Numbered from the stretch's first letter, positions 4,187 through 61,906 are shown. The stretch: 64,000 nt of DNA from Longimicrobiales bacterium (GCA_965249195.1 CBDFLM010000015.1:476644-540643), one strand, 5' to 3'. The notes: generated by a model not told the origin, from the sequence alone. Made by a program: numbers and translations.

Positions 4187-5306
4187 TCAGAAGAAGCGCG
4201 CCAGGGAGATCGCGAGCGCGGTGCGCTGCCGCTGCGCCAGAGCCGGCTCCCGGGTCGGATCTCCCGACCATCCGGTGATCGCCGCCTCGACCGAGGTGGC
4301 CGCGCCCACGGTCCAGCCGACCTGGACCGCGTAGCTTCCGATTGCCCGATTCCATGTCGACGAGTAGCTGGGGTCGGAGCCTAAGCTGCTCAGCGACGAG
4401 TTGGCTGCCGACGAGAAGATCGTCCCAGAGGGGAGAGCGGGATTCGTGGTCGACTCCCGACCAACCCTGCTCGACGACGAACGACAGGTACGGCGTGGGG
4501 AACCACTCGCCGCCTACGGTGCCGCGCGCTTCGGTCGTGCCATCCCTCCTTCGCACAGCCCCCTCGGAGTGAAGGACCACGGGCCCGAGGGCCCACTGGA
4601 GCTCGTAGCCCCCTTGCCTGAGCGAGGGCGGGTCGAGAGCGGCCCCGCCGTCGGGGTGAGGGACCGCCCAGAACGACCGGTCGCTTCCGTGCACGTACGT
4701 CAACGCCACGTCCAGCGGACCCAGCACCCGGGACAGGCGCGCGCCCCCACCCGGATGGTCTCCCCAAGACTTGTCGGAGCGGAGTGGCAGGCCTCCCCAG
4801 GTCTCGGTCAGCAGCCCTCCCATATCCGTCGGGCGGGACACCGGGAACGCGACGGTCTCGAGAGAGCCCCACCCGCCGAACAGCGTCAGGCTCACGAGTG
4901 GCTGGCCCAGTCGCCGCCCACGTGCGGCGTCCCAGAAAGTTGCTCTCGGCGTAAGGACGTCGATCGGGCTCCGGAGGGCGGAGAGTCCCCACGGCACGTC
5001 CCCTATGCCGATCCGAAGCTCCGCGGAGCTCCACTGCTCCACGACCGTCACGTCCTCGAGGTTCAAGAGCGAAGCCCCCGCGTCGTCCAGATCCAGCCGG
5101 GCCGACACGGAGACTTGGAGCGACATTCCGAGCACCGACGCTCGGTGTGCCATACGCGCCTGCAGGTAGGGAACCGTCCGCGCTTCGACGCTACCCCCGA
5201 CCCGGACCGCTCCGGCGGCGATCCGGCTCGCCTGACCCTCGACCCCCTCGCAGGCACCGCCCACGACCAGAAAACCGATCGCGAGCCGGAGAAGTCGGGA
5301 GCACAT
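4187..5306 (-). CDS. Putative outer-membrane beta-barrel protein, reading frame disrupted near 4390-4440
   Basis: N-terminal signal peptide MCSRLLRLAIGFLVVGGACEG, then alternating beta-strand-like sequence in the 3846..5306 frame. A different frame carries a canonical OMP C-terminus ...SYAVQVGWTVGAATSVEAAITGWSGDPTREPALAQRQRTALAISLARFF* ending at 4187. The two halves are offset by 1 nt. The tail of the track ORF (3846-4186) overlaps the MFS gene and is junk. Confidence 0.45.
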
Positions 5307-5309
5307 AGA

Positions 5310-6089
5310 TCACCGACCGAGCCGGGCCGGGTCGAAATCACGTGCGGTGAGGCCGACACCCAAACGCAGATCGGTCCATTCCAAGGTGGTGCTTCCTCCG
5401 TCCCTGAGATCGACCATGGTCATCCGCCCCGCGCGCCAGAAGCCGCCGATCTCACGATAGTCCGCGATGTCGAGCGACCTGCGCCTGGCGCCGCCGCCGT
5501 CGAAGTACTCGACCCTGTGCAGCAGGTAGCGCTCCAGGTCGATCCACAGAAGCTGCCTCGGATAGCCGCCCGCTCCGCCCCGGCGGATCCGCTCGACCAG
5601 CACAGCATCGAGACCGGAGACGTCTTCATCCCTGATCCAGCGATACGAGAACCCCTCCATGCTCGGGGGACTCATGTCGTCGAACGTGAAGTGACTTCCC
5701 AGGAAGCTGTCGCTCGCCTGCGAGCCGCTAATCCGTCTCACCCGACGCGCGGTCGGAAGGTAGATCCACTGCGACCGGCTGCCGTCTGCGGCCAGAACGC
5801 TCAGGAACTCCGTCCTGGCGAGATCGGCGGGCCGCTCGAGCACGATCCGGGTCCGGTCCCCGTCCTGGGCCTCGAGGCCGCGCACGCGCATTTTTCGCAA
5901 TCGCTCCCGATCACCGTTCTCGACCCGCATCAGCAAGTCGGCCTCGAAGTCGCCGTATCCACGACTTCGTTGCTCCATCTCACGGACGATCGCATGCCCT
6001 CGCTCCCGGGCATCCTGCGCCGCGGCACCAGGTGCGGCGAGGGCAGCGACGGTCGCAAGCGCCAACAAGCCGGCCACTTTCGCGCTCAT
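5310..6089 (-). CDS. LolA-like outer-membrane lipoprotein-sorting / periplasmic lipid-carrier protein, partner of the MMPL exporter
   Basis: The true start is the internal Met of MSAKVAGLLALATVAALAAPGAAAQ (signal peptide). It overlaps the MMPL stop as ATGA. The MMPL + LolA-like pairing is known from aryl-polyene / flexirubin lipid-export modules. Confidence 0.6.
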   Translation of the reverse strand: MSAKVAGLLALATVAALAAPGAAAQDARERGHAIVREMEQRSRGYGDFEADLLMRVENGDRERLRKMRVRGLEAQDGDRTRIVLERPADLARTEFLSVLAADGSRSQWIYLPTARRVRRISGSQASDSFLGSHFTFDDMSPPSMEGFSYRWIRDEDVSGLDAVLVERIRRGGAGGYPRQLLWIDLERYLLHRVEYFDGGGARRRSLDIADYREIGGFWRAGRMTMVDLRDGGSTTLEWTDLRLGVGLTARDFDPARLGR

Positions 6090-8432
6090 CGAGGACTCCG
6101 CATGAGGAGGGACCGTATGGCGGGCCTTCGAGCGACGGCCCGCAGGAACGCAGGGAATCCGACCAGATCCGCGGCGAGGGCGAGGATGGCGGCGGAGCTG
6201 GTCAGGAGCCCGACCAGGAAGAGGACCTGGAAGCGCGACAACATGAGCACGCTGAAGCCGCACACGACGACCACTGTCACGACAACCAGCGCGGACCCGA
6301 CCTTTCGGAGCGTTTCAGCGAGTACGCGGTCCACTTCGGCAGACGAGCGCACGTTACGCACGAGGGCCCCGAGAAAGTGGATCGTGTCGTCGGCGACGAG
6401 GCCGAACGCGATCGCGAAGACGATCAAAGTGGTCGGCTTGAGATCGAACCCGCCCAAGCGCATGAGCCCGAGCAACATGACGAGCGGAAACAGGTTCGGG
6501 ACGACTGCGACCAGCCCGAGGCGGGCCGAACGGAACATCCACGACATGGCCATCCAGACGAGAACGATCGAGAACGCGACACCGGGCAGGAAGCGCGAGA
6601 CCATCTGGTCCCAGAGCACTTGAGACAGCTTCACTGTCCCGGTCAGCGTGGCGGACCCCCGCGGCGGCGGGAGGGTTGTGAGCTGATCCTCGAGGCCGAG
6701 CAGGAAGGGGGACAACGCGGAGGAGCCCGCGTCCCGCACGAAGAAGACCACCTGGCCGGCCCCCCCCTCACGGAGGTACACGTCCTCCAGAGCGTCGAGC
6801 TCCTGTAGCTCCGAGAGGAAGAGGAGCTCGGCGACCTCCTCCGTGCTGCGAACCGTCGCGGACGTCCGCTCCTCCCCCGACCCGGCAACACCGGCCTCCG
6901 GCACCGACCCGTACGCGGCGCCCAGCTCGTCTACGAACTGGGGCAAACCCACCGAGCCGAGAACGACCGGATCGGCCTCGCCAAATGCCTGGAGCTCCCG
7001 GATCCATCGGAGCATCTCGGCGGAGTGACCGGGACCATCCCCATTCGTCAGGAACACGTTGACCTGAAACACGCCGAATCCGGCATCCTCTATCCAGCGC
7101 AGCTCCTCGAGGATCGGATCCCCGTCCTTGAGGTCGTCGATGAGCAATGCGTGCACACGAAGCCCACCCCCGAGCGCGAGCCCGAGGCCGAGTAGGACGG
7201 CGAATACCCAGTTCGGCCAGCCCGGGTGGATTCTCAGGGTCGCCTCTATCCGGCTCACGACGGAGCGACCGAGTCGCTCGCCCAGCGGCTCGTCGGGACC
7301 GAGATCCGAGGCGAACGAGAGGAGCGCGGGCAACAGGGTCGACGTGACGCCGAAGGCCGCTATCACGGCCAGGCCGGTCACGATCCCGAACTCGTAGACC
7401 AGGGGATTCCGCGTGGCCACCAGCCCCACGAAGCCGAGCGCCGTCGTCAGCGAAGTGAAGAAGCAGGAGCGCGCCAGCGTGGCGAAGGTGGCCACGACGG
7501 CGTCGGGCACCGTACGCCCCCCCCTGCCATCGTTGCCGGGCTCCAATCACGAGGTGCGTCGCGTCGGAAAGGGCCACCACGAGGATGACGATCGGCACCG
7601 CGCTCGTGAGCACGGAAACCGCCCGGCCCACGTAGCCCATGACCCCGAGCGTCAGGAGGATTGCCGGGGCGACGGACGCGAAGCACAGGAGGGCGAGGGA
7701 GAGGCGTTGGAAGTACGCCCAGAGCAGGGAGAGCGAGATGAGGACGCCGAACCCCAACAGCTTCGTCATATCCGCTTCGAGCGCGAGCGGCACCGTCACG
7801 CGTAGGATCGGCAGGCCGTTCAGGATGATCCGGCCCGCTCCCGCGGCTATCTCCTCGATCTCGGCCTGGAGGAAGGCCGTGACCTCCCTGCGCCTTGCGT
7901 CGCTGTCGTCGGCCGGATCCAGATATCCGTGTACGGCGAAGACGGTCAGGTCGTCGTTCCACAGGGTGGCGGCGAAGAGCGGGTGATCCCGACGGGGTTC
8001 GAGCACTTCGTGCAGCCGCGCGTCCGACAGGCCCGTCTCGTCGCGGGGTCGCCGGAGCCGCACCGCCGGCTGACCGTCCTCGAACGTCTCCTCCACGAAT
8101 TCCGTGGATCCGATCCAGCGGACGGATTCCAGCCCGGCCTCGTCGAACGCTCGGGCGAGGCGCTCGAGGGTGCGGTACTCCTGGATACCGAAAGTGCCCG
8201 TGACCTCCAGGAATGCCGACACCTGGAGGTCCTCCTTCGGAAAGTGCCGTTTGAACGCGTCGTACGCCTCCCGATCTCCGCCCTCGAACGCGAAGAATTG
8301 CTGGGCCGAGTAGTCCACGCGGACGTCGCTGGCGCCGACGAGCGCTGCGACGAGCAGCGCCCCGTGGATGACGACCACACTCCCCCGTCGCTGGACCAGG
8401 AGTCGGAAGAACGCCTCGACGCGCGGGTTCAC
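6086..8432 (-). CDS. MMPL / RND-superfamily lipid exporter (HpnN-like), frameshifted at a G8 tract
   Basis: The N-terminal half is real in frame 6768..8432 up to ...ALSDATHLV. The C-terminal half is real in frame 6086..7546 (…TVPDAVVATFATLARSCFFTSLTTALGF…TLLPALL, then a second periplasmic domain plus TM bundle). The frames switch at the homopolymer 7517-7524. Confidence 0.75.
7517..7524. repeat. C8/G8 homopolymer at the MMPL frameshift junction
   Basis: cgtacg-CCCCCCCC-tgcc read directly. It encodes the RGG / QGG junction of the two MMPL frames. Confidence 0.9.
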
Positions 8433-8453
8433 GGTCGCCCCATCAAGGTCGGC

Positions 8454-9827
8454 TCACCCTCCGGCGAGGAACCGGAAGTGGATGGGGAGGACGAGTAAGG
8501 TCGCCGCTGCCGAGCAGGCGGTCTGCAGGCTCATGTTCCAGGGCGGCTCGGCGGGCCAACCAGGCAGTGTGCGAGCAGTCCAGTAGATAGCGGTCGCGGC
8601 GAGCGCGATCGCGGCGGCGGTGGCGACGGACGCCGCCGTCACGCCGCCGCCGAACCACAGGCCGGTGGGAACCACGAGCAGTACCGCCGCGACACCGACG
8701 GCCAAGGTGAAGGGGAGCGAGGTCGGCTCGCGATTGCCCGGCCCGAAAGGCCGAAACTGAGTGAGCGAGACGAGCGACAACTGGCCCGCGATCACGCCGA
8801 TGAAGGGCGCCCGGAACGCCTCGCCCCCGACGAGCCAGTCCGGACCGGCGAGGACACGAGCAGTGACGTCGTGCGTCGCCAGCAGCACGAGCGCGACGAG
8901 GACCGCGTAGATCGTAGCGAGCACCTGATAGTGCGCATCGGGCAGTGGCCCTCGATCTCGTCGGAAGTGTCTCAGGGCCGCGAGCGCGGCCAATGCGATC
9001 GTCGGGGCCACCAGCCAATCGCCACCACCGAACACGTACACGCCGTAGAAGAAGAGCGCCGCGGCCATGACGCCGCTGGTGCGCATGAGCTTGGACCTCA
9101 GGCACAGCAGGCCCAAAAGCAGGATCATCGCCACCAGCGCCGCGAGATGGCCCGCGACGAGGCCCGCCGGCTCCGGGACGAACCGTACGAGCATGTAATA
9201 CGTGGCCAGTGGGACGAGCAGATTGTCGCTACCACGCAGGCTCACTCCCTCGATAAGCGTAACGATCAAGGAGATGTGAATCCCGAGAAGCACACTCGCG
9301 TCGCGGCCGACCTCGGTCATCAGCAGAAGCGGAACGTGCACCACGAGGAACGTGGTCACGAAGAAGGACGCCGAGCCTTCCAGGGACCCACGGTCGCTCT
9401 CGACGGAATACGTGGTGCGGCCGTACGTGGAGCCGAGAAGTGCGGCTGCGGTGTCGGAAACGACGAGCGCCAGCGCCGCCACGAGGTAGAAGACGGGCTG
9501 CTCGTACGCCAGCGTGAAGAGCAGCACCACCGCGAGCGGATAAAACAAACCTCCCTCGGAGCGTCGCGAGATGCTGTGGACGCTCTGGAGCAGACCGAGC
9601 CTGCGCGTACCCCAGATCAGCAGCGCGAAGCAGGAGGCGAGCCATAGCACGGTCCAGCGGCTGGTGAAGATCCATGGGAACGCCAGGACCAGCAGCCCGC
9701 CGACGAAGTGTACGAACTTGCGACTCAGCTCCGGCGGTGGCTTGGCGAACCACCGCCATGCCTCGGCTGCCCCGAAAATAAGGAGGAAGCCCGCGCCGAC
9801 GGCCGCCGCCCGTGGCAGCTCAGCCAT
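8454..9827 (-). CDS. Integral membrane protein: N-terminal CdsA / CTP-transferase-superfamily-like domain (polyprenol / DAG kinase-like) plus about 300-aa multi-TM C-terminal extension
   Basis: Start taken at MAELPRAAAVGAGFLLIFG, an internal Met 8 nt into the upstream BtaA-like gene. N-terminal motif SRKFVHFVGGLLVLAFPW resembles CTP-dependent lipid kinases / cytidylyltransferases. The rest is mostly hydrophobic helices. The family assignment is tentative. Confidence 0.45.
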   Translation of the reverse strand: MAELPRAAAVGAGFLLIFGAAEAWRWFAKPPPELSRKFVHFVGGLLVLAFPWIFTSRWTVLWLASCFALLIWGTRRLGLLQSVHSISRRSEGGLFYPLAVVLLFTLAYEQPVFYLVAALALVVSDTAAALLGSTYGRTTYSVESDRGSLEGSASFFVTTFLVVHVPLLLMTEVGRDASVLLGIHISLIVTLIEGVSLRGSDNLLVPLATYYMLVRFVPEPAGLVAGHLAALVAMILLLGLLCLRSKLMRTSGVMAAALFFYGVYVFGGGDWLVAPTIALAALAALRHFRRDRGPLPDAHYQVLATIYAVLVALVLLATHDVTARVLAGPDWLVGGEAFRAPFIGVIAGQLSLVSLTQFRPFGPGNREPTSLPFTLAVGVAAVLLVVPTGLWFGGGVTAASVATAAAIALAATAIYWTARTLPGWPAEPPWNMSLQTACSAAATLLVLPIHFRFLAGG

Positions 9828-10938
9828 GGCCGAGCACCTCGTCGACGTGAAAGGACTGGTAGAACCACGCCAGGTCGCGCTCGTGGAGCCCGTGAGCGAC
9901 ATCGGAGCGCGGGCGCACGCGACCCGCGAGACCCGGTGGCATCGAGCGCGGCGTGAGCAGATTCCAGTACGCGAGTCGGGCACCCGGCCTGGAACGCTCC
10001 ACAAGCGCACGGTACACGCGCTCGTGCTCCGCCGTACTCATGTACTCGAAGATGTCCGACAGGTTGAATCCGTCGAAGCTCCCCGCCGCCTCCTCGACCG
10101 GGCCCCGGTGTATGCGGAGCCGACCGATCCGCTCTCGCACCAGGGGCCGGAACTCCGGGCGCAGGTACCGAGGCAGTGCCCCCGTCCGGTAGCTGCCGGT
10201 CATGATGCAGGTCAGGTAGGGGTTGGTGTCCGTTGGCAGCTCGATGAGGGCGTGGCGCGTGCGCGCGAGGATCCGACCGGCGACCGGACCGTTGACGTGC
10301 TCGAAGAACGCCGGATCCCTTCCGAGACGACCCATGACGGTCCGACTGAAGAACAACCGGAATAGGAGCCGCCACCTCCAGCTGTCCCAGGAACGACGGT
10401 AGAACGTCTCACGATCATCTCGAGATCGTGGCTGCAGCAGCGCCTCCACCGTTCCCGCCGAGTGGATCAGCGGGAGTACGCGGGCACGAAAGGTCCGGAA
10501 ATAGGCTTCGAACCTCCCCGCGCGTGCTGCACCGGCCTGTACGAGCTCCGGCCGGCCGTCCCAGAAGTCACGGGCGAAGCCCGGCAGGGCCGAACGGAGG
10601 CGCCTGTACGTCGCGACTCGGTCCGTAGAGGGGAACACACCGAGGAAGGGCAGCAGGTCGGCGTCGTCGAGCTCGGTGAACGCCGCAATGCGAATCGCCA
10701 CGCACGCGAGCTGTGCCGGGCTCAAGTCGACGGCGACGACCTCTCGCGGATCGAGGGTCAGAAGAGCCAGCGCGTTGTCTCCCGCCGAGGCGATGCTCAG
10801 GAGCCGGCCGTCCTGCGCGACGGGGGCGAGCGCATCGCACAGGACGTCCGCGTCCTCCCACACGCTGCCGTACCGGATCGCCTCGAAGCTGGCGCGTTGC
10901 TGAATGGGTCGGTCGTCCCGAGCTTCAGCCGCCGTCAT
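9820..10938 (-). CDS. DUF3419 / BtaA-like S-adenosylmethionine:diacylglycerol 3-amino-3-carboxypropyl transferase family protein
   Basis: IRYGSVWEDADVL...LSIASAGDNALALL...REVVAVDLSPAQLACVAIRIA matches the BtaA signature YAQCWEDP...ITSAG.NAL...AVDLNP.Q. Start chosen at MTAAEARDD, preceded by a GGAGG RBS and overlapping the HMGR stop by 14 nt. Upstream Mets at 10977 and 11019 are possible alternatives. Confidence 0.7.
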   Translation of the reverse strand: MTAAEARDDRPIQQRASFEAIRYGSVWEDADVLCDALAPVAQDGRLLSIASAGDNALALLTLDPREVVAVDLSPAQLACVAIRIAAFTELDDADLLPFLGVFPSTDRVATYRRLRSALPGFARDFWDGRPELVQAGAARAGRFEAYFRTFRARVLPLIHSAGTVEALLQPRSRDDRETFYRRSWDSWRWRLLFRLFFSRTVMGRLGRDPAFFEHVNGPVAGRILARTRHALIELPTDTNPYLTCIMTGSYRTGALPRYLRPEFRPLVRERIGRLRIHRGPVEEAAGSFDGFNLSDIFEYMSTAEHERVYRALVERSRPGARLAYWNLLTPRSMPPGLAGRVRPRSDVAHGLHERDLAWFYQSFHVDEVLGHG

Positions 10939-12255
10939 CTCCGCCTCCCCTCTCGGGGGTGATCCTCGCTCCGTCATTGCGAGGGCGACCCAACTGCGCG
11001 TGCGCCTGCGCGAACTCACCTGCGCAGATCGCGGCCGCGATCGAGATCTCTCCCGCGAGAGCCAGCGCTGCGGTGATCTCGGCGAGCTTCGCCGAGCCGC
11101 CGTCTCCGAGGCACCCCAGGATGCGCAGCGACTCGCTTGCGGTGGGAAGGCGCGTCCCGCCGCCGACGCTACCCACGATGAGGTTGGGCAGGGTCACGCA
11201 GCCGTACAGGTCACCGGCCTCGGTGACCTCCATCCGGCTGAGCGCGGTGCTCGCTTCACTGACGCAGGCCACGTCCTGTCCGCAGGCGAGGAAGACTGCG
11301 GTCACGGCGTTCGCAACATGGCCGCTCACACCGATGGACCCGGTCTGCACACCGCCGATCACGCTCATTCGCCAGTACTCGGCGATGCGGTCGGGGGTCG
11401 TTCGGAGGCGGCCCTCGACCAGTGTGCGAGGCAGCAGCACCTCAGCCGTCGCGTGACGGCCGCGGGTATCGAAGAAGCTGAGCGCCGTGCCCTTCTTGTC
11501 CCCCGACATGTTCGACTCGATGACCCAGTAGCGGGGGGTGACCGGCGTGCGCCGCATGACGTCTTCGCACACCGCGGCGGTCGCGAACGTCACCATGTTC
11601 TGGCCCGCGGCGTCGCCCGGATGGAAGTCCAGAATCAGGTAGATGAGGTTCGCCTGGTGCTGGACGCGCATGTTCACGAGCCGACCGTGCCGGGTTCGGC
11701 TCTCGGCGACCTCACGCACTCGATCGAACTCGCCCACGATCCAGGCGGCGAACCGGATCGCTTCGGCCATCGTGTCGAACGCGAAGCCCGGCGCTCTCTG
11801 GACCTGCTCCACCGTCGTCAGGCATGCGGCCCCCCCCCCGCGAGGGTGACGATGCGTGCCCCACGTGAGTAACTCGCGACCAACGCCCCTTCCGACGTGG
11901 CGAGCGGAACGTAGAAGTCTCCGTGGGCGTGCAGGCCGTTCACCCGCAGGGGCCCGACGATCCCGGTCGGGACGCTCGTCATGCCGATGAAGTTCTCGAT
12001 GTTTCCCTCGAGCCCCGCCGCTGTGGGCGGATCGCCCCGGCCACCCAAATGGGGCAGAGGTCCGGCCATCGCCTCGAGGAACCGCAGTCGTTCAGCCGTG
12101 GCCGCCTCGGTGGTGTCTCCGCGTCCGGGGACCGAGGCAGGGATCGGCCGCTCGTCCGCCGGTGTGGGAGCGAGTGTGTCCTGCAGCTTCGCGACGTCGT
12201 TGCCCTTGCTCAGGCGTCGGGCGATCTTGACTGCGCGCTGGTATGGAATGGGCAT
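10925..12255 (-). CDS. Hydroxymethylglutaryl-CoA reductase (NADPH), class I catalytic domain, frameshifted at a G10 tract
   Basis: N-terminal part in frame 11818..12459: start at [15 protein letters not shown], then [21 protein letters not shown]...[28 protein letters not shown]-terminal part in frame 10925..11812: [11 protein letters not shown]...[12 protein letters not shown]...[14 protein letters not shown]. The junction is the homopolymer 11830-11839. Confidence 0.8.
11830..11839. repeat. C10/G10 homopolymer at the HMGR frameshift
   Basis: gcggc-CCCCCCCCCC-gcgag. A run of 11 (or 8) would restore ...[17 protein letters not shown]. Confidence 0.9.
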
Positions 12256-12269
12256 GGGTCGGGGCCGGT

Positions 12270-13553
12270 TCAGGGAATGGGGCTGCGAGAGGGTGTCGCG
12301 ACGGGCCGCAGCCGGAGCGGCATACCGCCTCGGGGTCGTAGGGCGATTCGGGGCTCGAGCGCGGGGCGGAACCCGGGGGCGACCTCGAAACGGACCCGCT
12401 GGCAGAGCGTGGACAGGATCAGCTGCGCTTCGGCGAGGGCGAACGATCCTCCCGGGCACATGCGCTGCCCCGCGCCGAACGGCAGGTACACGCCCCTCGG
12501 CGGGGCGTCCGCGCGGTCGGCAGCGAACCGGGAGGGATCGAACACGTCCGGCTCAGGCCAGTGTCTCGCGTCGCGGTGGAGCAGGAACGGAGACACGGTC
12601 ACGACGGAGCCGGCCGGGACGTCGTAGCTGCCGATGCGATCGGGGCCGGTCGCCCACCGGCTGAACCGCCACACCGCGGGATAGAGCCGGAGCGCCTCCT
12701 TGAACACTTCGGCCGCCGTCGACAACCGAGGGAGGTCGTCGAAGTTCGGAGCGCGGTTGCCGCAGACACGCTCGGCCTCCTCCCGGATGCGATCGTGATG
12801 CTCCGGGTGGAGCGCGAGGAGGTAGAACGTCCACGCCAGTGTGGTCGCGACCGTCTCGTGTCCCGCGACGAACATGGTCATCACTTCGTCGCGGAGATCC
12901 TCGTCGGAAAGCGTCGGGCCGCCGCTTCCGCCGGACCTCGAAGCACGCAACAGAACACTCACGAGGTCGCGCGCGCCGTCCTCGCCCGCCCCCTCGCTCC
13001 GCCGACGGGCGACGACGTCGTAGATCACGTCGTTCAGTACCGTGATGGCGTCGTCGAACCGCTTGCGAGCCGGGGTCGGGAGCGAGGACGCGACGCGCAG
13101 GATCCAACGGAGGCGGTTTCCGCCCGGGAGCAGCTCCAGATACCGGAGCCGTGAAACGGAGAGTCGCTCCACGTGGTCGAAGACGACCTCGGCCGCTCCG
13201 TGGATGTCGCCCTCGCTGAGCTCGAGGTCCGAGCCGAGGACTGTCCGCGTGATGTTGCGGAGCGTGAGCTCGCTCATGCGTTGGTACATGTCCACCGTGC
13301 CGTTCTCGAGCGCGGCTCGAGCTAGCTCCTCGGCCTCGTCGGCCGCGGTCTCGGCCATGACCCGTGCGAACACCGCCAGGCGCTCCTTTCGCAGCACGGG
13401 TTGCACCAGCTTGCGGTGGGTCCGCCAGTGATCCCCCTCGCTCGTCACCAGTCCACGCCCGAGAAATCTCGAGAGCAGCTCGTATCCGGGCCCCTTCGTG
13501 TAGTTCGCCGCGTTCTCGACCAACACGTGCCAGACCGCGTCCGGATCGCTCAC
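12270..13553 (-). CDS. Cytochrome P450
   Basis: 427 aa. Heme-binding loop [20 protein letters not shown] (FxxGxRxCxG), I-helix AGHETVA and the ExxR motif. Confidence 0.85.
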
Positions 13554-13704
13554 CAGGAACTGGCTCAGCCCCCCATCTTCACGTGGACCACGTCCCCATA
13601 CGCATTCTGGAGCCGACGCTGCATGGCCGCCGGGTCCTGGCGCCTGCTCAGCACCGTGCGCACGAAGTCGGCGCCGCGGGGTCCGGGTGCTCGGGAGGAA
13701 CGGG

Positions 13705-14793
13705 TCACGGCGCGACGTCCCGACGCAGGAGCTCGTATCGGCGGACCCAGCGGTCGACCGAGGGCATCCTGTGGGGATCGAGAAGGAAGGCGCTCTTGTT
13801 TCCCACCCGCACGAGTGCCGAGACGAACCTGTGATACCCGTCGCCGATGGCCGCGCGGGCGACCGAGTGCAGCAACGCCGACGACACCCACCTGCCCCGG
13901 GCCGCGGCAGCGACCGCGATCGTCTTGACCACGACCCAACCCCGGTCGGGGAAGGCGAAGACGAAGCCAGTGAGGCGGCCCCGTTCGTCTCTGGCCAAGA
14001 AGGTCAGGTGGCCATCGGCCGCAGCGAGCACTTGGTGGTACAGCCGGTTGAAGAGGTCCTGCGGAAGCGGCTCGAAGAGCGGGTTCTCCCCGAACGCCTC
14101 CATACACATCGGATGGAGCTCCTGCAGCACGCCATCGAAGTCGGAGATGCCCCTGAGCCGCTCGAATCGGAACCCCGAATCCGAAGCGATCTCGAAGCCC
14201 CGACGGGTATGCTCGAAGAAATCTTGGACCGTGTATGCACCGGAACTCGGAAAGTCGAATCCGATCGTCTCGAACGTTTCCGCCGTCTCGAAGCCCAGTC
14301 CACGGAAGCGCTCCGGATACTCTTCCGGCTGGTCCGGCTCCCAGCCGAACGACCGAGGGGCGGAGGACGCGGCGCCGTCCGCGACGACGAAGCGGTAGGT
14401 GAACCAGGTGTTGACGTCGACCGGCGCATACAGCTCTTCCATGCCTTGCTCGGCTGCCCACCCCAGCACGGCTGCCACGATCTCCTCCGTCGCGGCGTCG
14501 CCCAGCGGGCCGCCCTCAGCCTCGTAGAGCCCGAGCATTCCCACGCGCTGGAGCCGCCCACCGCGAAAGGCGGCCGCACGCGCGACGTCGCCGTCCGGTC
14601 CCTCCACGACGAGGAGGAGGGCCGAAGACCGCAGGCCGACGCGGAGAACGGTCGCCAGATACGCGGAGGATTCCCGCCGGTCAGGGGCCCACGCCCGTCG
14701 TAGAGCGGCGCCGGTCCGCTCGAACCGGGCGAGGAAGTCGGTGGGTGGCACGATGCCGGGGGTCGAGGCCCAACGAGCGACGGTGAGGCTCAT
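13705..14793 (-). CDS. Tandem GNAT-fold acyltransferase-like protein (OlsB / MshD-like architecture)
   Basis: 362 aa. Two GNAT-like halves; the C-terminal half has the acyl-CoA motif VAAAARGRWVSSALL. Its start overlaps the upstream PEP-enzyme stop as ATGA. Confidence 0.4.
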   Translation of the reverse strand: MSLTVARWASTPGIVPPTDFLARFERTGAALRRAWAPDRRESSAYLATVLRVGLRSSALLLVVEGPDGDVARAAAFRGGRLQRVGMLGLYEAEGGPLGDAATEEIVAAVLGWAAEQGMEELYAPVDVNTWFTYRFVVADGAASSAPRSFGWEPDQPEEYPERFRGLGFETAETFETIGFDFPSSGAYTVQDFFEHTRRGFEIASDSGFRFERLRGISDFDGVLQELHPMCMEAFGENPLFEPLPQDLFNRLYHQVLAAADGHLTFLARDERGRLTGFVFAFPDRGWVVVKTIAVAAAARGRWVSSALLHSVARAAIGDGYHRFVSALVRVGNKSAFLLDPHRMPSVDRWVRRYELLRRDVAP

Positions 14794-17488
14794 AGGATCC
14801 TCACCTCGCCCTTGCCGGCGTCCATGCGCACACGCTGACCGTTCCGCAGGCGTTCGAGCGGCGAGCCGCCGACCCCGACGATCGTCGGGATACCGAGCTC
14901 CCGAGCGACGACGGCCGAGTGCGAGAGTACGCTGCCCCGCTCGATGATCAGACCGGAGCAGGCCGGGAAGGCGGGGACCCAGCCGGGATCGGTCCGTTCC
15001 GTCACCAGAATCTCACCGTCGAGGCCCTCGGTGTCTTCGAAGCCATGCGCGAGGCGCACCGGACCCTCGATCACGCCAGGGCAGCAGGAGGTGCCTCGCA
15101 GCACGTCGGGGTCCTCGTCGCCGAGTTCGGCCAGGAGGTCGAGGCTCCGCAGCAACGTGGGATGGCGCAGCGTGGCGCCGGCCGCCCCCCGAGTGACGAA
15201 CCGATCCGGAGGGGGGTCCGTGCTCCGGTACTCGTCGAACTCTCGCCGACGCACCTGTGCTAGACCGCCCAGATCGAGGGTGATCGGTCGCCCCTCGACG
15301 AAGGCCAGGATCTCCTCGACCGTCAGGTAGAACACGTCGTGCTCGTCGCTCAGCGCACCGAGCCGCTCCAGGTTTCGACCCACGCCTCGGAAGAGGCGCC
15401 TTACGACGCCAAACGTCCTCGTACGTTCGAATCGCAGCCGCTCCCGATCGCTTACCGCGCGGCGCGCCCAACGCAGGACCGCGAAGTAGATCGGGCGACG
15501 GAGCCCACCCAGGCGGGCACGCACCTGCTCCTCGGCGCCCTCACGAATCGCGGTCTTACGCGCGTTGATCTCCTCCGAAGACGGCACGCCGTTGCGCACG
15601 TACCCCTGCACGCTTGCGACGACCAAGTGCGGTCGATCGTGGAAGTCGAGGGTCTCCAGCTTGAGCTCGTCCACGCAGCGGCAGCCGTACTCCTCGATGT
15701 AGCGCGCCAGATGTGGCCTCAAGTCGGGAGCGAACCCTTCCTGCAGGGCCGCCCACAGGTCCACCGGGTCACCCGTGACGAAGCGCTCGCGAACGGACGG
15801 ATCGCCCTCGACGTGTCGCGCGATCTCGAGCAGAAGACGCATCGGCTCGGTGCTCTTCAGCTCGCCGTGCCCGCAGAGGAGGTCGTTTTGCAGCGACGCC
15901 GCGCCGTCGTCCGGTCCACGTCCCACCCAACTCTCGGTCAGGCTCGCGAGCATCCCGAACGCGATCATGCACCGGGTGTCGTTCACGATCGGAGCGGTCC
16001 AGTGGCGAAGGACCCGGTCCTCCAGGTGGTGGTACAGCGCGACCTGCTCGGTGAGGCTCAGCCTCCCGAGATCCTGCGTCTCGAGGGGACGGCACACGCG
16101 TTCCACCCGCTCCAGGAACCTTTCGTTGGCTCGTACGCCTCCGAACATGCGGGTGCCCAGCCGGAGCAGGAGCGCCATGCGACGCACGGCGCCGTGCCGG
16201 GGCGCCTCGGCGACCACGGAGTCGAAGAGCGGCTGCAGATCGCCCTCCAGCGACTGCTTCACGCCCATCATCGTTTCCATGAACGCGCCGCTCTTGCCGA
16301 CCAGTGGGAACAGCGCCAGCAGGCGATACCAGTTGAGCAGGTTGTAGTACACGCGTCCGCGGACGAGGCCGAGCATGTTGCGGAACATTCACTCGCGCTC
16401 GTGGACGAGGGCGTCGGGGACCCCCATGATCCTGCACGTCTGGAAGTAGACCTCCCGGTACGCCCTGCTCACGTGTGAGAACGTGAGGGGCGTTGTGACG
16501 CCCGCGTAGCTCTCGATGATGTTCGAGTTGTCCCAGATCACCGCGTTCCCGCCGGCGACGCGTTCGTCGAAGAGCGAGTCCGGAGGCAGCGTGGTAATGG
16601 GGCGGGTCTGAAGCGAATAGAGCCGTCCGCCCGAAAAAGCCCACTCGAAGTCCTGGGGCGACCCGAGCTCGCGCTCGAGCCTCAACGACATACGGGCGAC
16701 CTCCCGCACCTGGTCGTTCGTGAGCGAAGGCCGCCTCGAACGGTCGGCTTCGACGGGAACTAGGTGGGTCCCGCCGTTCGGGCCGCGCACGATGGCGCGC
16801 GACTTCTCGGCAATCGTCGTCACGAAATCCAAGGTGGTGCGGTCCACGACGAAGCGGTCGGACTCCAGCTCGCCTCCGACGATGCCTTCGCCCTGGCCCC
16901 ACACGCTTTCCACGACCAGCCCGTCTCGATCGCCCGGGTCGAGCGGGTTCCGCGAGAATGAGACCCCCGCCGAATCCGAATCGACCATACGCTGCACGAT
17001 CACGCCCATACGGGGCACCGTGTCCGCGGCGCCGATCGCGCGACGGTAGGCCACGTTCCGCTCGGAGAAGGCCGACGCCCAGCACCGTCCGATCGCGTCC
17101 AACACCGTGTCCGCGCCCCGCCGGTAGAGGTAGGTCTCGAACTGGCCGGCGAACGAGTGCTCCGTGCCGTCTTCATCCAGACCGCTGGAGCGCACCGCGA
17201 CGTACGCATCGTCGAGCTCGAGCCGGGAGAGCGCGCCACGGACCGCGCTCGCGACCTCCGAAGGCACCCGCAGCGTGAGGGTTCCCGCCGACTGGGCGTC
17301 GGCGGACGAGCCACCCGCGCGACGTACCGCTTCCGCGAGAGAGCGTCGAACGCTTCGACGGCGATGCAGAACCACGGGGGCACGGTGCATCCGATCTTTT
17401 CCAGGGCCGCGAGTCGAGCGGCCTTGCCCCCGGCTCTCACGGATAGGGTGTTGGCAGGCGAGTGCGGGCCGAGGGGCTCGATGCTCAT
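14790..17488 (-). CDS. PEP-utilizing enzyme (PpsA / rifampin-phosphotransferase-like: PPDK_N ATP-grasp plus C-terminal phosphohistidine swivel domain), disrupted by a frameshift near 17333-17344 and an in-frame TGA at 16389-16391
   Basis: True N-terminus MSIEPLGPHSPANTLSVRAGGKAARLAALEKIGCTVPPWFCIAVEAF sits in the 17000..18388 frame. The gene continues in frame 16389..17543 (...AVRSSGLDEDGTEHSFAGQFETY...GVIVQRMVDSDSAGVSFSRNPL...) and ends ...VHERE-TGA-ATG-FRNMLGLVRGRVYYNLLNWYRLL. It then runs to 14790, where the swivel domain GVIEGPVRLAHGFEDTEGLDGEILVTERTDPGWVPAFPACSGLIIERGSVLSHSAVVARELGIPTIVGV is found. The start overlaps the UbiA stop as ATGA. Confidence 0.7.
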
Positions 17489-18381
17489 GCTCCCACCCCC
17501 GTCCACTGCGCCAAGGTCGGAGCGAGGACCTGGGTGAACGCAAAGAGCGCGGCGAGCCCCTCGACCGTCTTGAAGCGCTCGGGGTGCCGCGCGACGTGGA
17601 CGATACCGCAGAGAAGCGCGGCGCCCGCAGGCCACACGAAGACGTGCACGCCGACCTGGAACGCGGAGACGGCAGCTAAAACGACGGCGAGGGTCACCGC
17701 GGTGAACGTCCACCCCGGACCCGACACCGTGAGGTACGTGCCGAGGGCGGGATGAGCGTCCGGGTCGAGCTTGCGGCACAACTCGAGGGCGAAGGCCGCC
17801 CCCAACCCCGTCAAAGCGAACCAGAGGACCGGCGCGGTGAAGGTCGAGGTCGGCACGGCGGCCGCGGTCGCGAACGCGTAGATCGGGACGATGATGACCT
17901 GGTGCGTGACGGCGTACAGGAACGGTCTGCCACCCAGGCAAGTCGGCGCGAAGAACTCGCGGTACATGAGTAGGGCGTAGAGCACGCACAGACCGAAGAG
18001 GGCGCCTGGCAGGACACCGACACCGATCGCGATCGCGGCGGCACCGAGCAGGAGCCCAGTCACGCAGAGCCACAGCCCGGTGCGCGCCCCTCGCTCGCTC
18101 AACAGGCCACGAGGGAGGGGACGCTCGGGGTGGGCTGCGCGATTCTTGTCGAGGTCCTTCAGCTCGTCCATCAGCCGCATCGCCGACAGCAGGCCGGCGA
18201 TCCCGAGGACCGCGATCACGAGGCCCCCCACGTCCAGGCGCGCCCTCACCACGTACTGGGCCGCCGCCTGCGCCGTACCGAACACGAGCAGCGCGGGGAG
18301 CTGGAACCGCTCCCGGACGAAAACGCTCCACGCAGCGAGGAGCGAGCCTGGCGCCCGAGCGGCATGGGACATCTCGCTCAT
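17485..18381 (-). CDS. UbiA-family aromatic / polyprenyl prenyltransferase (integral membrane)
   Basis: 298 aa from MSEMSHAARAPGS. Asp-rich motif LMDELKDLDKNRAAHPERPLPRGLLS (NDxxDxxxD, RPLPSG) plus 8-9 TM helices. The track ORF 17485..19563 upstream of this Met is Arg-rich junk. ATGA overlap with the AMP-ligase stop. Confidence 0.8.
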   Translation of the reverse strand: MSEMSHAARAPGSLLAAWSVFVRERFQLPALLVFGTAQAAAQYVVRARLDVGGLVIAVLGIAGLLSAMRLMDELKDLDKNRAAHPERPLPRGLLSERGARTGLWLCVTGLLLGAAAIAIGVGVLPGALFGLCVLYALLMYREFFAPTCLGGRPFLYAVTHQVIIVPIYAFATAAAVPTSTFTAPVLWFALTGLGAAFALELCRKLDPDAHPALGTYLTVSGPGWTFTAVTLAVVLAAVSAFQVGVHVFVWPAGAALLCGIVHVARHPERFKTVEGLAALFAFTQVLAPTLAQWTGVGA

Positions 18382-19818
18382 CGTCCAATACCTTCCTTGG
18401 ACAGCGTCGCGGAGCGGTCGATCCGGGCGCGGTGCCGCCGATCGCGCACGATCGAGACGTCCACGGCGCCCTCGATCTCCGGAAAGCGGCTCGAGAAGTG
18501 CCAGCCCGCTGCGGCGACGCGGCGCTGGACCGCCTCGCCGTAGAGGATCAGGCGACCGTCCTGACCGCGACGGACGAAGCACGCGCTCGTGCGGAGCTCG
18601 GAATAGAGCCGCTGCTCGAGGTCGAACTCGCCCGCGGCCTGTGACGCCCGACCGGCGTACCACCACCCTTCGTCGTCGGCGATGACACGATCCCCCATGC
18701 TGTGCCAGCGGCGGCCTTCGGTGTCGTAGCGGCTCCCCCCGTTCGCCTGGGCGGATCCTTCGTCCAGTCGGGTGGCGACGTTGTCTCCGCTGACCCAGAG
18801 TCCGTCCGGCTCGGGGCGTGCGGAGATCACGGGGACGGGCACACCGATGAAGAGCGCCTGGAACAGGTTGCGGGCCTGGCTGCGCTCGACGGCTTCGCGG
18901 GCGTCGACCTTCGCGACGGGCTCCGCCTCCGGCCCGCCGTAGACGTGTGTCCACCCGGCGTCTGGCCAGCGCCGGAAGCAGCGCTCGAGGATCCGGCAAT
19001 CGGTCTGTGCTCCTCCTACCACGACCGATCGCAGACCGCTCAGGTGCTCGCGCGTCTGGTCGAACCTCAGCAAACTCAGGAGGAACGCTGGACCCGTGGT
19101 GAGCGTGGCCACCCGGAGCCGCTCCGAGAGGGCCGCGATCCCGCGCAGCTCGGCGCGACCCCAGCGCTTGGGGACGAGCAAAGCGCCTCGGCCCGTGCCG
19201 AGGTGGAGGAGAGCGAGGTTGGGGAAGACGCAGAGGGCGGGCTCGTCGAACCGATCGAGCGGATCGCCAGCGGTGATCGCCTCGTGTAGGCTCCACATGC
19301 ACTTGTGGCTGCGGACGATGCCCTTGGGAGGGCCGGTGGTTCCAGAGGAGAACGTGATGGTGGCCGTGGCATCCGGATCCACCTCTTGGCAATCGAACGT
19401 CCGCGACCCAGCGAAGCGCACGGCGCGGCCGATGTGGATCCATCGCCGAATCCGCCGCGCGGCCGGGACCCGCGCCGCCCAGAGCTGCGCGAGGCGTGAG
19501 CCGATGAAGGCCCTGGGAGCCACCCGGTCGAGCACGTTCTGCACCTCGCGCAGCGGGAGCCACGGCTCCACGAAAACGATGATCACGCCGAGCCCGAGGA
19601 GGGCGAGGATGGTCGCGTAGAGGAGTGGGTCAGGAGGGGACAGCACCAATACCGTGTCGCCCGCCGACAGGCCTTCGCGCTTCGCGAGCGCTTGTGCCCC
19701 CCCCCCCGGCCAATCGGCCGATTTCGCCGAAGGACACCCGGCCGTCCTTGAGCGTCCAAAGCGCCGGGCGGTGCGGTCGTTCCCGCAGGTGCGGCAATAC
19801 CCGGGTCGCGCAGTTCAT
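18378..19818 (-). CDS. AMP-dependent synthetase / ligase (acyl-CoA synthetase / fatty-acyl-AMP ligase family), frameshifted at a G11 tract
   Basis: N-terminus MNCATRVLPHLRERPHRPALWTLKDGRVSFGEIGRLAGGGG in frame 19630..19818. It continues ...AQALAKREGLSAGDTVLVLSPPDPLLYATILALLGLG in frame 18378..19649, with AMP-binding motif TFSSGTTGPPKG. The junction is the homopolymer 19697-19707. Confidence 0.75.
19697..19707. repeat. C11/G11 homopolymer at the AMP-ligase frameshift
   Basis: ttgtg-CCCCCCCCCCC-ggcc read directly. Confidence 0.9.
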
Positions 19819-20396
19819 GGAGCCTCGTTCAGCCGCTTGATGTTGCCGATGTTGCGCCGAAAGATCCGCGCGATCTCGTAGGCAGAGAGGCGCATGAGGA
19901 CTTGGTCGGCCACGCCGGGGTCATCGCGGAAGAAGAGCGTGAAGCTCAGGCGGCAGGCGTCCTCACCCAGGGGTTCGTAGATCTGCTCGGTCACGAGCTC
20001 GCCCCTGGTGGTGGGTGCCCCCTGCACGTTGTAGATGCGGAGTCGACGCCGGAGCGGTCCCACGAGCTCGAAGTACTCGTCCCAGGTCATCCCACTTTCG
20101 TCCGCGTTCTTGAATGACCGTCGAATCGACCCCCGTGCGCCGTCCTTGGCCTCGTGCGGGTTCAAGGGGGTGATGTGATCGACGAAGACGGACCAGGCGC
20201 TCGCGTTCCTCGAGTCGGCGAGGTACGCGAACACGCTCCCGCAGGCGTCTGCGATGTCGACGCCTTCCTTGACGAGCCGGTGGGCGTATCCCGCGTGGTG
20301 CCGGTAGGGACTCCAAAGAAGCACGGCAGCGAACGCGGATAGCGGAAGCACGAGCACCACATACCTGATCTGCGGGCGTCTCACGATCGTCTTCAT
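19815..20396 (-). CDS. SRPBCC (START / Bet v1-like, polyketide-cyclase-type) lipid-binding domain protein with N-terminal membrane anchor; first gene of the operon
   Basis: 193 aa. N-terminal TM YVVLVLPLSAFAAVLLW, then about 150 aa with an alpha/beta pattern typical of Polyketide_cyc2 / SRPBCC. ATGA overlap with the next gene. About 1 kb of lower-GC non-coding DNA lies upstream. Confidence 0.5.
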   Translation of the reverse strand: MKTIVRRPQIRYVVLVLPLSAFAAVLLWSPYRHHAGYAHRLVKEGVDIADACGSVFAYLADSRNASAWSVFVDHITPLNPHEAKDGARGSIRRSFKNADESGMTWDEYFELVGPLRRRLRIYNVQGAPTTRGELVTEQIYEPLGEDACRLSFTLFFRDDPGVADQVLMRLSAYEIARIFRRNIGNIKRLNEAP

Positions 20397-20600: not shown

Positions 20601-21099
20601 GGGTCGATGGACCCGGCTGGGGAGCTCCCCGCTACTCGCTAGCTCCGGCCACTCCCGGTCCGCCGGCCCGGGAGCGGCTCCTGCGGCCTCGTAGACAAGG
20701 CCACACCGCGAGGTCCGGGGGCCGACGTCGTCGAGTCGGTGATCGAGTGCCGCCTCATCCTTCCGGGCATGCCTTACGGACCCAGGTGCGCTTTCCGCGC
20801 GGCCTCGCTCCTAGGATGTCGGTCCAGTCACAGACCCATCGGGCGATGGTGTCGTTCCTGATTGACATCTTGGGTGGAGCTTGAGGAGCCCCGAGGCTCA
20901 GAGCCGGGCTTCCGGCGACCTCTCCTCATCGTCCAGGCGGACGCATTCAATCGGAGTAGACTGCGGACCGTGATGTTCCTCGTCGGGCTGGACATCGTCG
21001 GTGACAAGCTGATCTGACTCTTCGGACCTCGAGGCTGGGAGCCGCTGTGCTATCGGGGTTACCAACCAGGTGTGCACGTTCTCTGTGCACGAAATGCAG

Positions 21100-21452: not shown

Positions 21453-21719
21453 ATGCAAAAGAGGCGGTTTCGGGAAGAGCAAATCATCGGGATTCTGCAA
21501 GAAGTGGAAGCTGGAGCGACGATCCGTGAGATGTGTCGCAGGCACGGGATCGCGGAGACGACGTACTATCGGTGGCGCACGAAGTACGGTGGTATGGACG
21601 TGAACGAGGCGCGACGCCTCAAGCAGGTCGAGGAGGAGAACCGACGGCTGAAGCGGATCGTGGCCGACCAGGCCTTGAATCTTCAGATCCTGAAGGACTT
21701 GTTGGGAAACGGATCGTGA
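21453..21719 (+). CDS. IS3-family transposase OrfA (HTH)
   Basis: MQKRRFREEQIIGILQEVEAGATIREMCRRHGIAETTYYRWRTKYGGMDVNEARRLKQVEEENRRLKRIVADQALNLQILKDLL. Shows the IS3 / IS911 OrfA HTH plus leucine zipper. Confidence 0.85.
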   Translation: MQKRRFREEQIIGILQEVEAGATIREMCRRHGIAETTYYRWRTKYGGMDVNEARRLKQVEEENRRLKRIVADQALNLQILKDLLGNGS

Positions 21720-22579
21720 CGGCCCGGGAACGGCGCCAGGTCGTCGAGCAGGTGCAAGCCGTGCGAGAGGTTTCAGAACGCAGAGCGATCCGGTACACGG
21801 GTTTTCCACGCTCTACGATGCGATATCGCAGCACTCGCGATCCCCAGGAGCTTCTACGAGCTCGCATCGTAGAGTTGGCGCAGGAGCGGCCACGCTGGGG
21901 CTACCGGATGATCCACGTGATGCTTCGACGAGAAGGCCGGCTGGTGAACAGGAAACGAGTTCAACGACTCTACAGGGAGGAAGGGCTCGCGGTGCGTTCG
22001 AAGGGAAGGAAACGTAGGAGCCAGGCCCCTCGACCGATCCGAGAGGCGTTGAGCGGCCCGAACGAGCGGTGGAGCATGGACTTCGTCTCTGGCACGCTGA
22101 GCAACGGCCGCCAATTTCGGTGCCTGACGATCATGGACGAATTCAGTCGCGAGTGCCTGGCGATTCACATCGCGCATTCGATTCCGGCCGCCGGGGTCAT
22201 CGAGGTGATGGAGTGCCTCAAAGAGTCCAGAGGGTTGCCCGAAGTGATCATCACGGACAACGGCTCCGAGTTCCGCAGCCGTGCGTTCGATTCATGGGCC
22301 TACGCTCGAGGCGTGAAGCTCGATTTTATTCAACCGGGCAAGCCCGTCCAGAACGGCTTCATCGAGAGCTTCAACGGAACACTCCGGGGCGAGTGCTTGA
22401 ACCTGCACTGGTTCCTCTCGATCCACGACGCGAAACGTTCGATCGAGCAATGGAGAGCTGACTACAACGAAGTTCGTCCCCATAGCTCCTTGGGCTTTCT
22501 GACTCCCGAGGAGTTTATGGATATTCATTCACCGAGCGAAGAGAACCTCGCTCCCAAAAATATCTCGGAAGTCCCATGA
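21704..22579 (+). CDS. IS3-family transposase OrfB (DDE integrase core), expressed as an OrfAB fusion by -1 frameshift near TTGGGAAAC
   Basis: The -1 frame from about 21704 reads GKRIVTARERRQ...GYRMIHVMLRREG...WSMDFVS...ITDNGSEFRS...NGFIESFNGTLRGE...YNEVRPHSSLGFLTPEEF (rve domain). The track ORF start at 21533 is out-of-frame junk that overlaps orfA. Confidence 0.8.
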   Translation, partial: GKRIVTARERRQVVEQVQAVREVSERRAIRYTGFPRSTMRYRSTRDPQELLRARIVELAQERPRWGYRMIHVMLRREGRLVNRKRVQRLYREEGLAVRSKGRKRRSQAPRPIREALSGPNERWSMDFVSGTLSNGRQFRCLTIMDEFSRECLAIHIAHSIPAAGVIEVMECLKESRGLPEVIITDNGSEFRSRAFDSWAYARGVKLDFIQPGKPVQNGFIESFNGTLRGECLNLHWFLSIHDAKRSIEQWRADYNEVRPHSSLGFLTPEEFMDIHSPSEENLAPKNISEVP

Positions 22580-22608
22580 TTTTTGGATCAACTTCGGGGG
22601 TCACTTCA

Positions 22609-23178
22609 GCCGAGCTACCGGATTACCTGCACGGCCCGACGTTGTTCGCTTGGCTGACGGGCTGGAGGCGTGGCGAAGTGTTCGGTCTCACGTGGGCTCA
22701 AGTTGATTTCGACGCAGGCATCGTTCGCCTCGAACCCGGTACAACCAAGAACCTTCAGGGTCGCGAGTTCCCGTTCTGGGGTCTTCCCGAACTAGCTGCC
22801 TTGCTGGAAGCCCAGCGTGATCGGGCTAGGGAACTAGGCCGGAGGCGTGGCGAGTTCGTGACCCTTGTCTTCCATCGTGATGGAAAGCCCCTGGGCGACC
22901 ACCGCAAGGCTTGGGCACAAGCGTGCGAACGCGCCGGTCTGGCGGGGCTGCTATTCCACGACTCGCGACGCTCAGCCGTTCGCAATCTGGAGAGGGCAGG
23001 GGTGCCACGCTCGACCGCGATGCGCCTGACCGGCCACAAGACGGAAGCGGTCTACAGGCGCTACGCAATCGTGGATTCCGTGATGATCGAGGAGGGCGTC
23101 CAGAAGCTCGCGCGGCTGGTGGCGAACGGCGGCAAGGCTCGCACGGTATTACCCATGACGGTCGCGGCGCAGGGGTGA
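22609..23178 (+). pseudogene. Tyrosine recombinase / phage-integrase C-terminal catalytic-domain fragment; the N-terminal about 200 aa are missing at the IS boundary
   Basis: LTGWRRGEVFGLTWAQVDFDAGIVRLEPGTTKNLQGREFP...FHDSRRSAVRNLERAGVPRSTAMRLTGHKTEAVYRRYAIVD carries the R...HxxR...Y motifs. Homology starts immediately after IRR. The track ORF start at 22576 lies inside the IS. Confidence 0.7.
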
Positions 23179-25255: not shown

Positions 25256-25351
25256 TCGCCCCATGCCTCTCAGGCGTTCGTCGATCGGCACCGAATGACC
25301 TCGAGAGCCTCCGGTAGGGGGGGAAGACCCACAACCGTTCCTCGACGCGCG

Positions 25352-61861: not shown

Positions 61862-61906
61862 GATTCATCACTGACCCCGCACGCGGAGGTGACCGCAGCA
61901 GCCGCG

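Follow-up and report, generated by a model that had tools for sequence, protein, structure and literature searches.

A 12-gene accessory operon carried by a 64,000-nucleotide stretch of DNA from a Longimicrobiales bacterium (GCA_965249195.1, CBDFLM010000015.1:476644-540643; this whole stretch is referred to as the window) has probably been inactivated recently and is decaying into pseudogenes across an entire species-level population of Gemmatimonadota (Longimicrobiales-like), a reading to which we assign a probability of about 0.72. Compared with intact orthologous operons, the operon in the window contains seven lesions in six of its 12 genes. Operon-wide decay is indicated because several lesions are found again in further assemblies of this species, because sister strains hold independent inactivations, and because polymorphism within the operon shows no purifying selection. 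An initial annotation of the window had set low sequencing quality beside genuine decay as possible causes of these interruptions; decay is favoured for the operon as a whole, and low quality may still be responsible at individual sites.

The operon, its intact orthologues and its lesions

The operon lies on the minus strand of a window with a G+C content of about 66%. Assignments from Pfam and NCBIfam give, in the order of transcription, an SRPBCC protein, an AMP-dependent ligase, a UbiA prenyltransferase, a phosphoenolpyruvate (PEP)-synthase-like enzyme, a GNAT protein, a cytochrome P450, HMG-CoA reductase (HMGR), a DUF3419 protein, a 457-residue membrane protein, an MMPL/HAE3 RND transporter, a LolA-like protein and an outer-membrane protein (OMP) whose C terminus reads ...LARFF. 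The PEP-synthase/PigC/RedH/Rph-like enzyme (hereafter PEP enzyme) has about 900 residues with PPDK_N, Rph_4th and PEP-utilizers domains; the P450 is of the terpene type, and the HMGR is a class-I (NADPH) enzyme. Judged from these domain assignments, 'lipid operon' is a fair shorthand for what would be an uncharacterised isoprenoid/lipid-like biosynthesis and export cluster.

Comparison with orthologous operons, as proposed in the initial annotation, yielded four syntenic loci (L001, L004, L005 and L081) in which each operon gene is a single uninterrupted open reading frame (ORF), so that open frames are the expected state of the cluster. The nearest relative with an intact operon is L081, whose HMGR is 85% identical to that of the window. 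A genome scan with the DUF3419 protein, whose top matches reach only 68-69% amino-acid identity, located the cluster also in Gemmatimonadota (Longimicrobiales), Eisenbacteria, Planctomycetota, Thermoanaerobaculia and some Rhodobacterales. The arrangement HMGR/UbiA/P450/PEP-synthase-like/GNAT/DUF3419/MMPL/LolA-like/OMP is syntenic across several phyla, in the four loci above and about 80 others. A literature search with the terms DUF3419, HMGR and MMPL found no paper on the cluster, which thus appears undescribed in the searchable literature.

Lesions in the operon were defined by three-frame translation and by blastx against the four intact orthologous operons. C runs on the strand presented correspond to G runs in the genes, and are mostly discussed as such below. 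The operon and its interrupted genes are as follows.

4190-20396, minus strand: accessory operon of 12 co-oriented genes, syntenic and intact in L001, L004, L005 and L081
18378-19818, minus strand: AMP-dependent ligase, frameshift at a C11 run (19697-19707; in-frame lengths 7, 10 or 13)
14790-17488, minus strand: PEP-synthase/PigC/Rph-like enzyme, in-frame TGA (16389-16391) and a -1 frameshift at about 17342
12270-13624, minus strand: cytochrome P450, -1 frameshift at 13569-13574 (G6, where G7 is required), at about codon 18
10925-12255, minus strand: class-I HMG-CoA reductase, frameshift at a C10 run (11830-11839; in-frame lengths 8 or 11)
6086-8432, minus strand: MMPL/HAE3 RND transporter, frameshift at a C8 run (7517-7524; G7 is in frame, the window being +1)
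4190-5306, minus strand: OMP gene, frameshift through an extra G at 4339 (GG, where the conspecific assemblies L082 and L085 have a single G)

All six operon lesions that had been reported from the window are present. The count was too low by one, the P450 frameshift having been overlooked, and the OMP break, placed at 4390-4440, actually lies at 4338/4339, roughly 50-100 nucleotides away. The true C terminus of the OMP is encoded in another frame at 4333-4190, and the N terminus of the P450, MQRRLQNAYGDVVHVKMG, likewise sits in a different frame from the remainder of the gene. In the PEP enzyme, the TGA directly precedes an ATG codon, whereas L081 has TGG GTC, with Trp at the position of the stop, and orthologues further removed have Gly, Ser or Pro there; the frameshift of this gene falls at a (TC)3 site from which one T is absent. 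HMGR with G11 or the AMP-ligase with G10 would be back in frame, each length being one base from that in the window. A second run in the MMPL gene (6760-6767) is G8 and in frame in the window, and G5 in L082 and L083.

Two ways of reading through the breaks were considered and rejected. Recoding of TGA as Trp, Gly or Sec is contradicted by the use of TGA as the terminator of 46 of 51 genes in the window, where it behaves as a normal stop. Conserved programmed frameshifting at the G runs does not fit the orthologues, which do not have the runs and are read straight through.

Recurrence of lesions, reliability of base calls and selection

Four assemblies of the same species (L082, L083, L084 and L085) were reached via cluster mates of the HMGR fragment of the window (P0025), and eight further loci covering 22.6-55.9 kb (L086-L092 and L093) via two housekeeping proteins. 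Loci were compared by pairwise megablast; the conspecific assemblies are 99.1-99.8% identical to the window at the nucleotide level. Contig names, such as ctgN_2x_l and contig_99, and error signatures suggest that they are long-read metagenome assemblies, some with only 2-5x coverage.

The TGA ATG of the PEP enzyme is identical in the window, L082, L083 and L085, and the G6 of the P450 is identical in the window and all of L082-L085. The assemblies that share these two lesions belong to two lineages about 0.5% apart in single-nucleotide polymorphisms (SNPs). Other sites differ between assemblies. The MMPL run at 7517-7524 is G8 in the window and L085, and G7 in L082 and L083, both of which have an intact MMPL ORF of 780 codons. 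For HMGR, the window has a G10 run, L082, L083 and L084 have G7, and L085 has G8, which is in frame; the gene is out of frame in four of the five assemblies. In the four assemblies that cover the AMP-ligase run, its length is G11 (window), G10 (L082), G9 (L083) and G8 (L085).

The sister assemblies also contain hits of their own. Single-base deletions at 19095 and 4954 are found in L082 and an insertion at 12335 in L083; L085 contains five single-base indels, an element of the IS256 type inserted in the MMPL gene between copies of a 9-bp target duplication (GGGGGGCCG), and a deletion of 657 bp, in frame, that removes 219 codons from the C-terminal part of the PEP-enzyme gene. At least five operon lesions are thus present in each of L082, L083 and L085, the conspecific loci in which most of the operon is covered.

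These data bear on the alternative that all or nearly all of the lesions are sequencing or assembly artefacts, caused by low or strain-mixed coverage, and that the operon is intact in the organism. A base substitution reproduced in four assemblies and a G6 run reproduced in five are not readily attributed to consensus error, and neither the insertion with its target duplication nor the 657-bp deletion in L085 can be explained by base-calling. Furthermore, the lesions are not confined to long homopolymers: runs of at least 8 account for just three of the seven, the others being a substitution, a G6 run, a GG context and a TT context. As controls, we considered G/C runs of 7-8 in intact genes, for which 16 of 17 comparator calls agree with the window, as against 1 of 12 for the operon runs. 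Runs of G6-G8 are therefore called reliably, and the P450 G6, the MMPL G8/G7 split and the G7 of HMGR in three assemblies are real. Elsewhere in the window, a C7 run in a TPR gene (24592-24598) and an intergenic G7 run (25317-25323) have a length of either 7 or 8 depending on the sister assembly. The TPR gene is unbroken in the window but split in L088 and L091; the remaining G7 runs show no length variation.

The rest of the window was checked by codon-usage Viterbi segmentation, with Pfam applied to every suspicious junction. Outside the operon, 43 of about 45 genes are intact, which indicates a generally high consensus quality and again disfavours artefact as the general cause. The two broken genes are adjacent and are of housekeeping type.

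41110-41926, plus strand: metallo-beta-lactamase (MBL)-fold (Lactamase_B_2) gene, frameshift through an extra T at 41350, private to the window
42102-43152, plus strand: DAHP synthase (FXD and DAHP_synth_1 domains), two frameshifts

Together they hold three lesions, where two had been reported for the 48 kb outside the operon. The extra T of the MBL-fold gene is absent from the sisters, and an unbroken gene is the probable state in the population. At 41377-41386 the gene has a C10 run, in frame in the window, for which L086, L087 and L093 have C9 or C8. An intact-looking 271-residue MBL gene in L093 was discounted as evidence of an intact allele, since it arises from compensating indels in an error-laden contig. 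In DAHP synthase, normally a housekeeping enzyme, a -1 frameshift near 42444-42446 is common to the window, L086 and L087; the second break is at a G15 run (42474-42488; in-frame lengths 7, 10, 13 or 16) for which the other assemblies have G9, G9 and G8, none of them in frame. This gene is either a real pseudogene with a paralogue elsewhere or the site of a systematic error.

The concentration of lesions in the operon, first pointed out in the initial annotation, is borne out by the revised counts: seven of the ten lesions fall within the operon, which makes up 25.3% of the window (binomial p = 0.004). Counted by gene, six of 12 operon genes are broken compared with two of about 45 elsewhere (Fisher p = 6e-4), an uneven spread that artefacts would not be expected to produce.

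Several observations nevertheless weigh against decay and in favour of error. The comparators are themselves noisy. In L090 and L093 there are 20-29 single-base indels for every 10-15 kb; most of these are +1 G/C insertions, such as are numerous in conspecific contigs whose names denote coverage of 2x-5x. L082 has a break in an MFS gene for which the window has an open frame. A private single-base indel of any one assembly is therefore weak evidence. Three of the seven operon lesions fall in G runs of 8-11, and runs of at least 10 differ between assemblies everywhere. All four such runs in the window have lengths found in no comparison assembly; at three of them the frame is broken, and the fourth, the C10 run of the MBL-fold gene, is in frame only in the window. 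Disagreement of this kind is what homopolymer mis-calling would produce, and the breaks of the two housekeeping-type genes near C10 and G15 runs point the same way; run lengths of 10 or more cannot be trusted in these assemblies. Three lesions, the OMP +G, the PEP-enzyme -T and the AMP-ligase G11, are seen in the window assembly alone, and the first and last of these fit the +G error signature. Exact-match look-ups found the window's alleles of these private lesions on one contig only. L082 and L083 may come from related samples and are perhaps not fully independent. Finally, when only indels private to the window are counted, four lie in the operon and three outside, and the enrichment is not significant (p = 0.12); the enrichment of the operon is accordingly due to the shared, hence real, lesions.

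Polymorphism bears on the same question. Between strains, operon SNPs comprise 45 nonsynonymous and 16 synonymous changes (74% nonsynonymous; distributed evenly over codon positions, 24:20:17), or 36 and 8 (82%) when only alleles found in at least two assemblies are counted, for a neutral expectation of 0.70-0.73 nonsynonymous. SNPs outside the operon number 50 nonsynonymous to 38 synonymous, and 29 to 21 for alleles in at least two assemblies, about 57% being nonsynonymous. The two regions differ both for all SNPs (Fisher p = 0.039) and for the shared alleles (p = 0.015). Because a substitution present in two assemblies does not stem from base-calling noise, these counts argue that the operon evolves without purifying selection. 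They are consistent with relaxed constraint at a ratio of nonsynonymous to synonymous rates (dN/dS) of about 1, which is found in the operon only and which an intact, merely mis-sequenced operon would not show.

Taken together, the comparisons make wholesale artefact unlikely. Three lesions of the window, namely the PEP-enzyme TGA, the P450 frameshift and the MMPL G8, are corroborated by other assemblies and on that basis are taken as real, whereas the HMGR G10, the AMP-ligase G11, the OMP +G and the PEP-enzyme -T may be either real mutations or consensus errors.

For a decaying operon, we infer the following order of events and consequent loss of function. The PEP-enzyme TGA and the P450 -1 frameshift would be the oldest hits, since both are fixed in the two sampled lineages, and would predate the split of the sampled strains. 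With the pathway broken, selection would have been relaxed on the whole cluster, leaving every gene neutral. Each lineage would then have gained its own hits, in the form of single-base indels and, in one lineage, the IS256-type insertion and the 657-bp deletion. Slippage may have occurred at G runs formed by GGG-GGG glycine codons (G5/G8, G7/G8, G7/G8/10 and G8-11). The operon retains a G+C content at third codon positions of 0.85-0.9 and 55-88% identity to its orthologues, so the decay is young.

Switchable tracts or tolerated breaks as possible alternatives

The variable runs could also be understood as contingency loci. The G tracts of the MMPL, HMGR and AMP-ligase genes would then undergo phase variation by slipped-strand mispairing, possibly together with an invertible segment upstream, and the operon would be functional at the level of the population. 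Each tract is indeed in frame in some assembly (MMPL G7, HMGR G8, AMP-ligase G10), and lengths vary both between and within lineages, as for the AMP-ligase in L082 and L083. The full ranges are 7/8 for MMPL, 7/8/10 for HMGR and 8/9/10/11 for the AMP-ligase, with sequencing error possible at 10 and above. In addition, an inversion polymorphism is found just upstream of the first operon gene.

20621-20772: 152-bp segment preceding the first operon gene; orientation in L082 and L083 opposite to that in the window and L085

The tracts are, however, not conserved: L081, for example, encodes the Gly-Gly of HMGR as GGA GGC. Runs of at least 8 are not enriched in the operon either, four being observed where base composition predicts about 3.8. 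Length switching at three tracts could not rescue an operon with a fixed nonsense codon and a fixed P450 frameshift, and the dN/dS of about 1 is not that of a cluster maintained by selection. The 152-bp segment ends in short palindromes, GGCATGCC and GGGGAGCTCCCC, with no long pair of inverted repeats; flanking inverted repeats measure at most about 4 nucleotides. A promoter and terminator scan of the segment region found nothing, including no sigma-70-like promoter consensus, and the inversion separates the lineages without varying within them. Phase variation is therefore a very doubtful account of the operon.

Alternatively, some of the lesions may be tolerated. The TGA-ATG junction would divide the PEP enzyme, by termination and re-initiation, into an ATP-grasp subunit of about 366 residues and a swivel-domain subunit of 532 residues, and translation of the P450 would restart at a GTG at 13553. 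Four assemblies retain the in-frame ATG that directly follows the TGA, and the break has the PPDK_N domain on one side and the Rph_4th and PEP-utilizers domains on the other. Split PEP-synthase-like enzymes exist, phenylphosphate synthase with its separate subunits being an example, and the P450 is shifted early, at about codon 18. Against tolerance, the neutral polymorphism extends across the operon and includes the PEP-enzyme and P450 genes, and L085 has lost 219 codons of the C-terminal part of the PEP enzyme. A truncated P450 would moreover lose its conserved N-terminal beta-strands, whose sequence can still be made out in the other frame. Of the explanations weighed here, tolerance of the breaks seems to us the least credible. 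Scarcely better is a combined scheme in which the three G tracts and the invertible 152-bp segment constitute multi-switch phase variation of outer-membrane lipid export in Gemmatimonadota, from which contingency loci are not known, and TGA-ATG represents a functional gene fission; we regard this scheme as marginally less plausible than phase variation by itself. Decay of the operon thus remains the preferred reading.

Mobile DNA, other features of the window and known systems

Mobile DNA adjoins the operon on its upstream side, as had been noted when the operon was placed next to an insertion sequence (IS) and an integrase remnant. The IS is of the IS3 family and occupies about 21.45-22.6 kb; the integrase is truncated, with a breakpoint at 22609.

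21453-22608, plus strand: IS3-family element at the rearrangement breakpoint, with an HTH_Tnp_1 orfA (21453-21719) and an rve orfB extending to 22579
22576-23175, plus strand: tyrosine integrase truncated at its 5' end; the complete gene in L088-L091 encodes 363 residues

Position 22609 is precisely where the window begins to match the integrase island of L088-L091. In the sister sample ERZ28763718, the operon and the L25 region are on different contigs. The operon seems to sit at an IS-mediated rearrangement, an incorrect assembly join being the less likely explanation. The IS3-family element is mobile in the population, occurring at different places in L088 and L089; where it stands in the window, a genomic island of the sisters (primase Zn-ribbon, HTH_17 and other genes) is replaced by the operon.

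Two further features lie at a distance from the operon. A single uninterrupted ORF (33563-34417), found in the sister assemblies too, encodes ribosomal proteins S6 and S18 with an acidic linker between them and appears to be a fusion; within the linker, an 18-bp in-frame repeat, GAAGACGAGGACGACGAT, is present at 34121 and is absent from L088, L089 and L091. At 61433-61861, only the C-terminal third of a creatininase-family protein is encoded (Pfam model positions 162-238). This fragment, probably a gene remnant, lies against a long ORF on the plus strand (61769-64000) that matches no Pfam model.

The analysis has a practical side. True pseudogenes can be separated from long-read homopolymer artefacts without access to the reads, by means of conspecific assemblies, control homopolymers and the ratio of nonsynonymous to synonymous changes among shared SNPs. 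It also carries a warning, in that annotation of the present metagenome-assembled genome will report too many or too few pseudogenes wherever a G run reaches 10. The homopolymer uncertainty that overlies the decay of the operon is usual for long-read metagenome-assembled genomes. For the organism, it points to the ongoing, parallel loss of a widely conserved and uncharacterised cluster within one Longimicrobiales-like species, which suggests that the product of the cluster is dispensable in the niche of this species.

Three known situations invite comparison. Watson and Warr, writing in Nat Biotechnol in 2019, reportedly described artificial frameshifts that arise from homopolymer indel errors in long-read assemblies. 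The window resembles such cases in its breaks at G/C runs of 8-15, in discordant run lengths and in low-coverage sister contigs full of +1 insertions. It differs from them in that the TGA substitution and the G6 run are reproduced, runs of G7-8 are stable in constrained genes, structural lesions are present, and the breaks are spread unevenly over the contig.

Contingency loci with poly-G/C tracts underlie phase variation in Campylobacter jejuni, Neisseria, Haemophilus and the fim genes of Bordetella. As in those systems, intragenic G tracts of 7-11 vary between strains of the present population and toggle the reading frame. Unlike them, the operon tracts are neither conserved in orthologues nor enriched, and the genes that contain them are neutral and carry other, fixed inactivating mutations.

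The closest parallel is the pseudogenisation of accessory operons that accompanies IS activity in Mycobacterium leprae and M. ulcerans, Burkholderia mallei, Shigella and Yersinia pestis. There as here, frameshifts, a nonsense codon, an IS insertion and a deletion pile up in one functional unit, related strains have acquired independent hits, dN/dS is about 1, and an active IS and a rearrangement breakpoint adjoin the affected genes. The present case differs in concerning an environmental Gemmatimonadota population known only from metagenome assemblies, in which several lesions are candidates only and decay is limited to one operon, perhaps with the pair of MBL-fold and DAHP-synthase genes, instead of extending genome-wide. 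Pseudogenisation of an accessory cluster beside mobile DNA is thus an already-known kind of event and involves no new mechanism.

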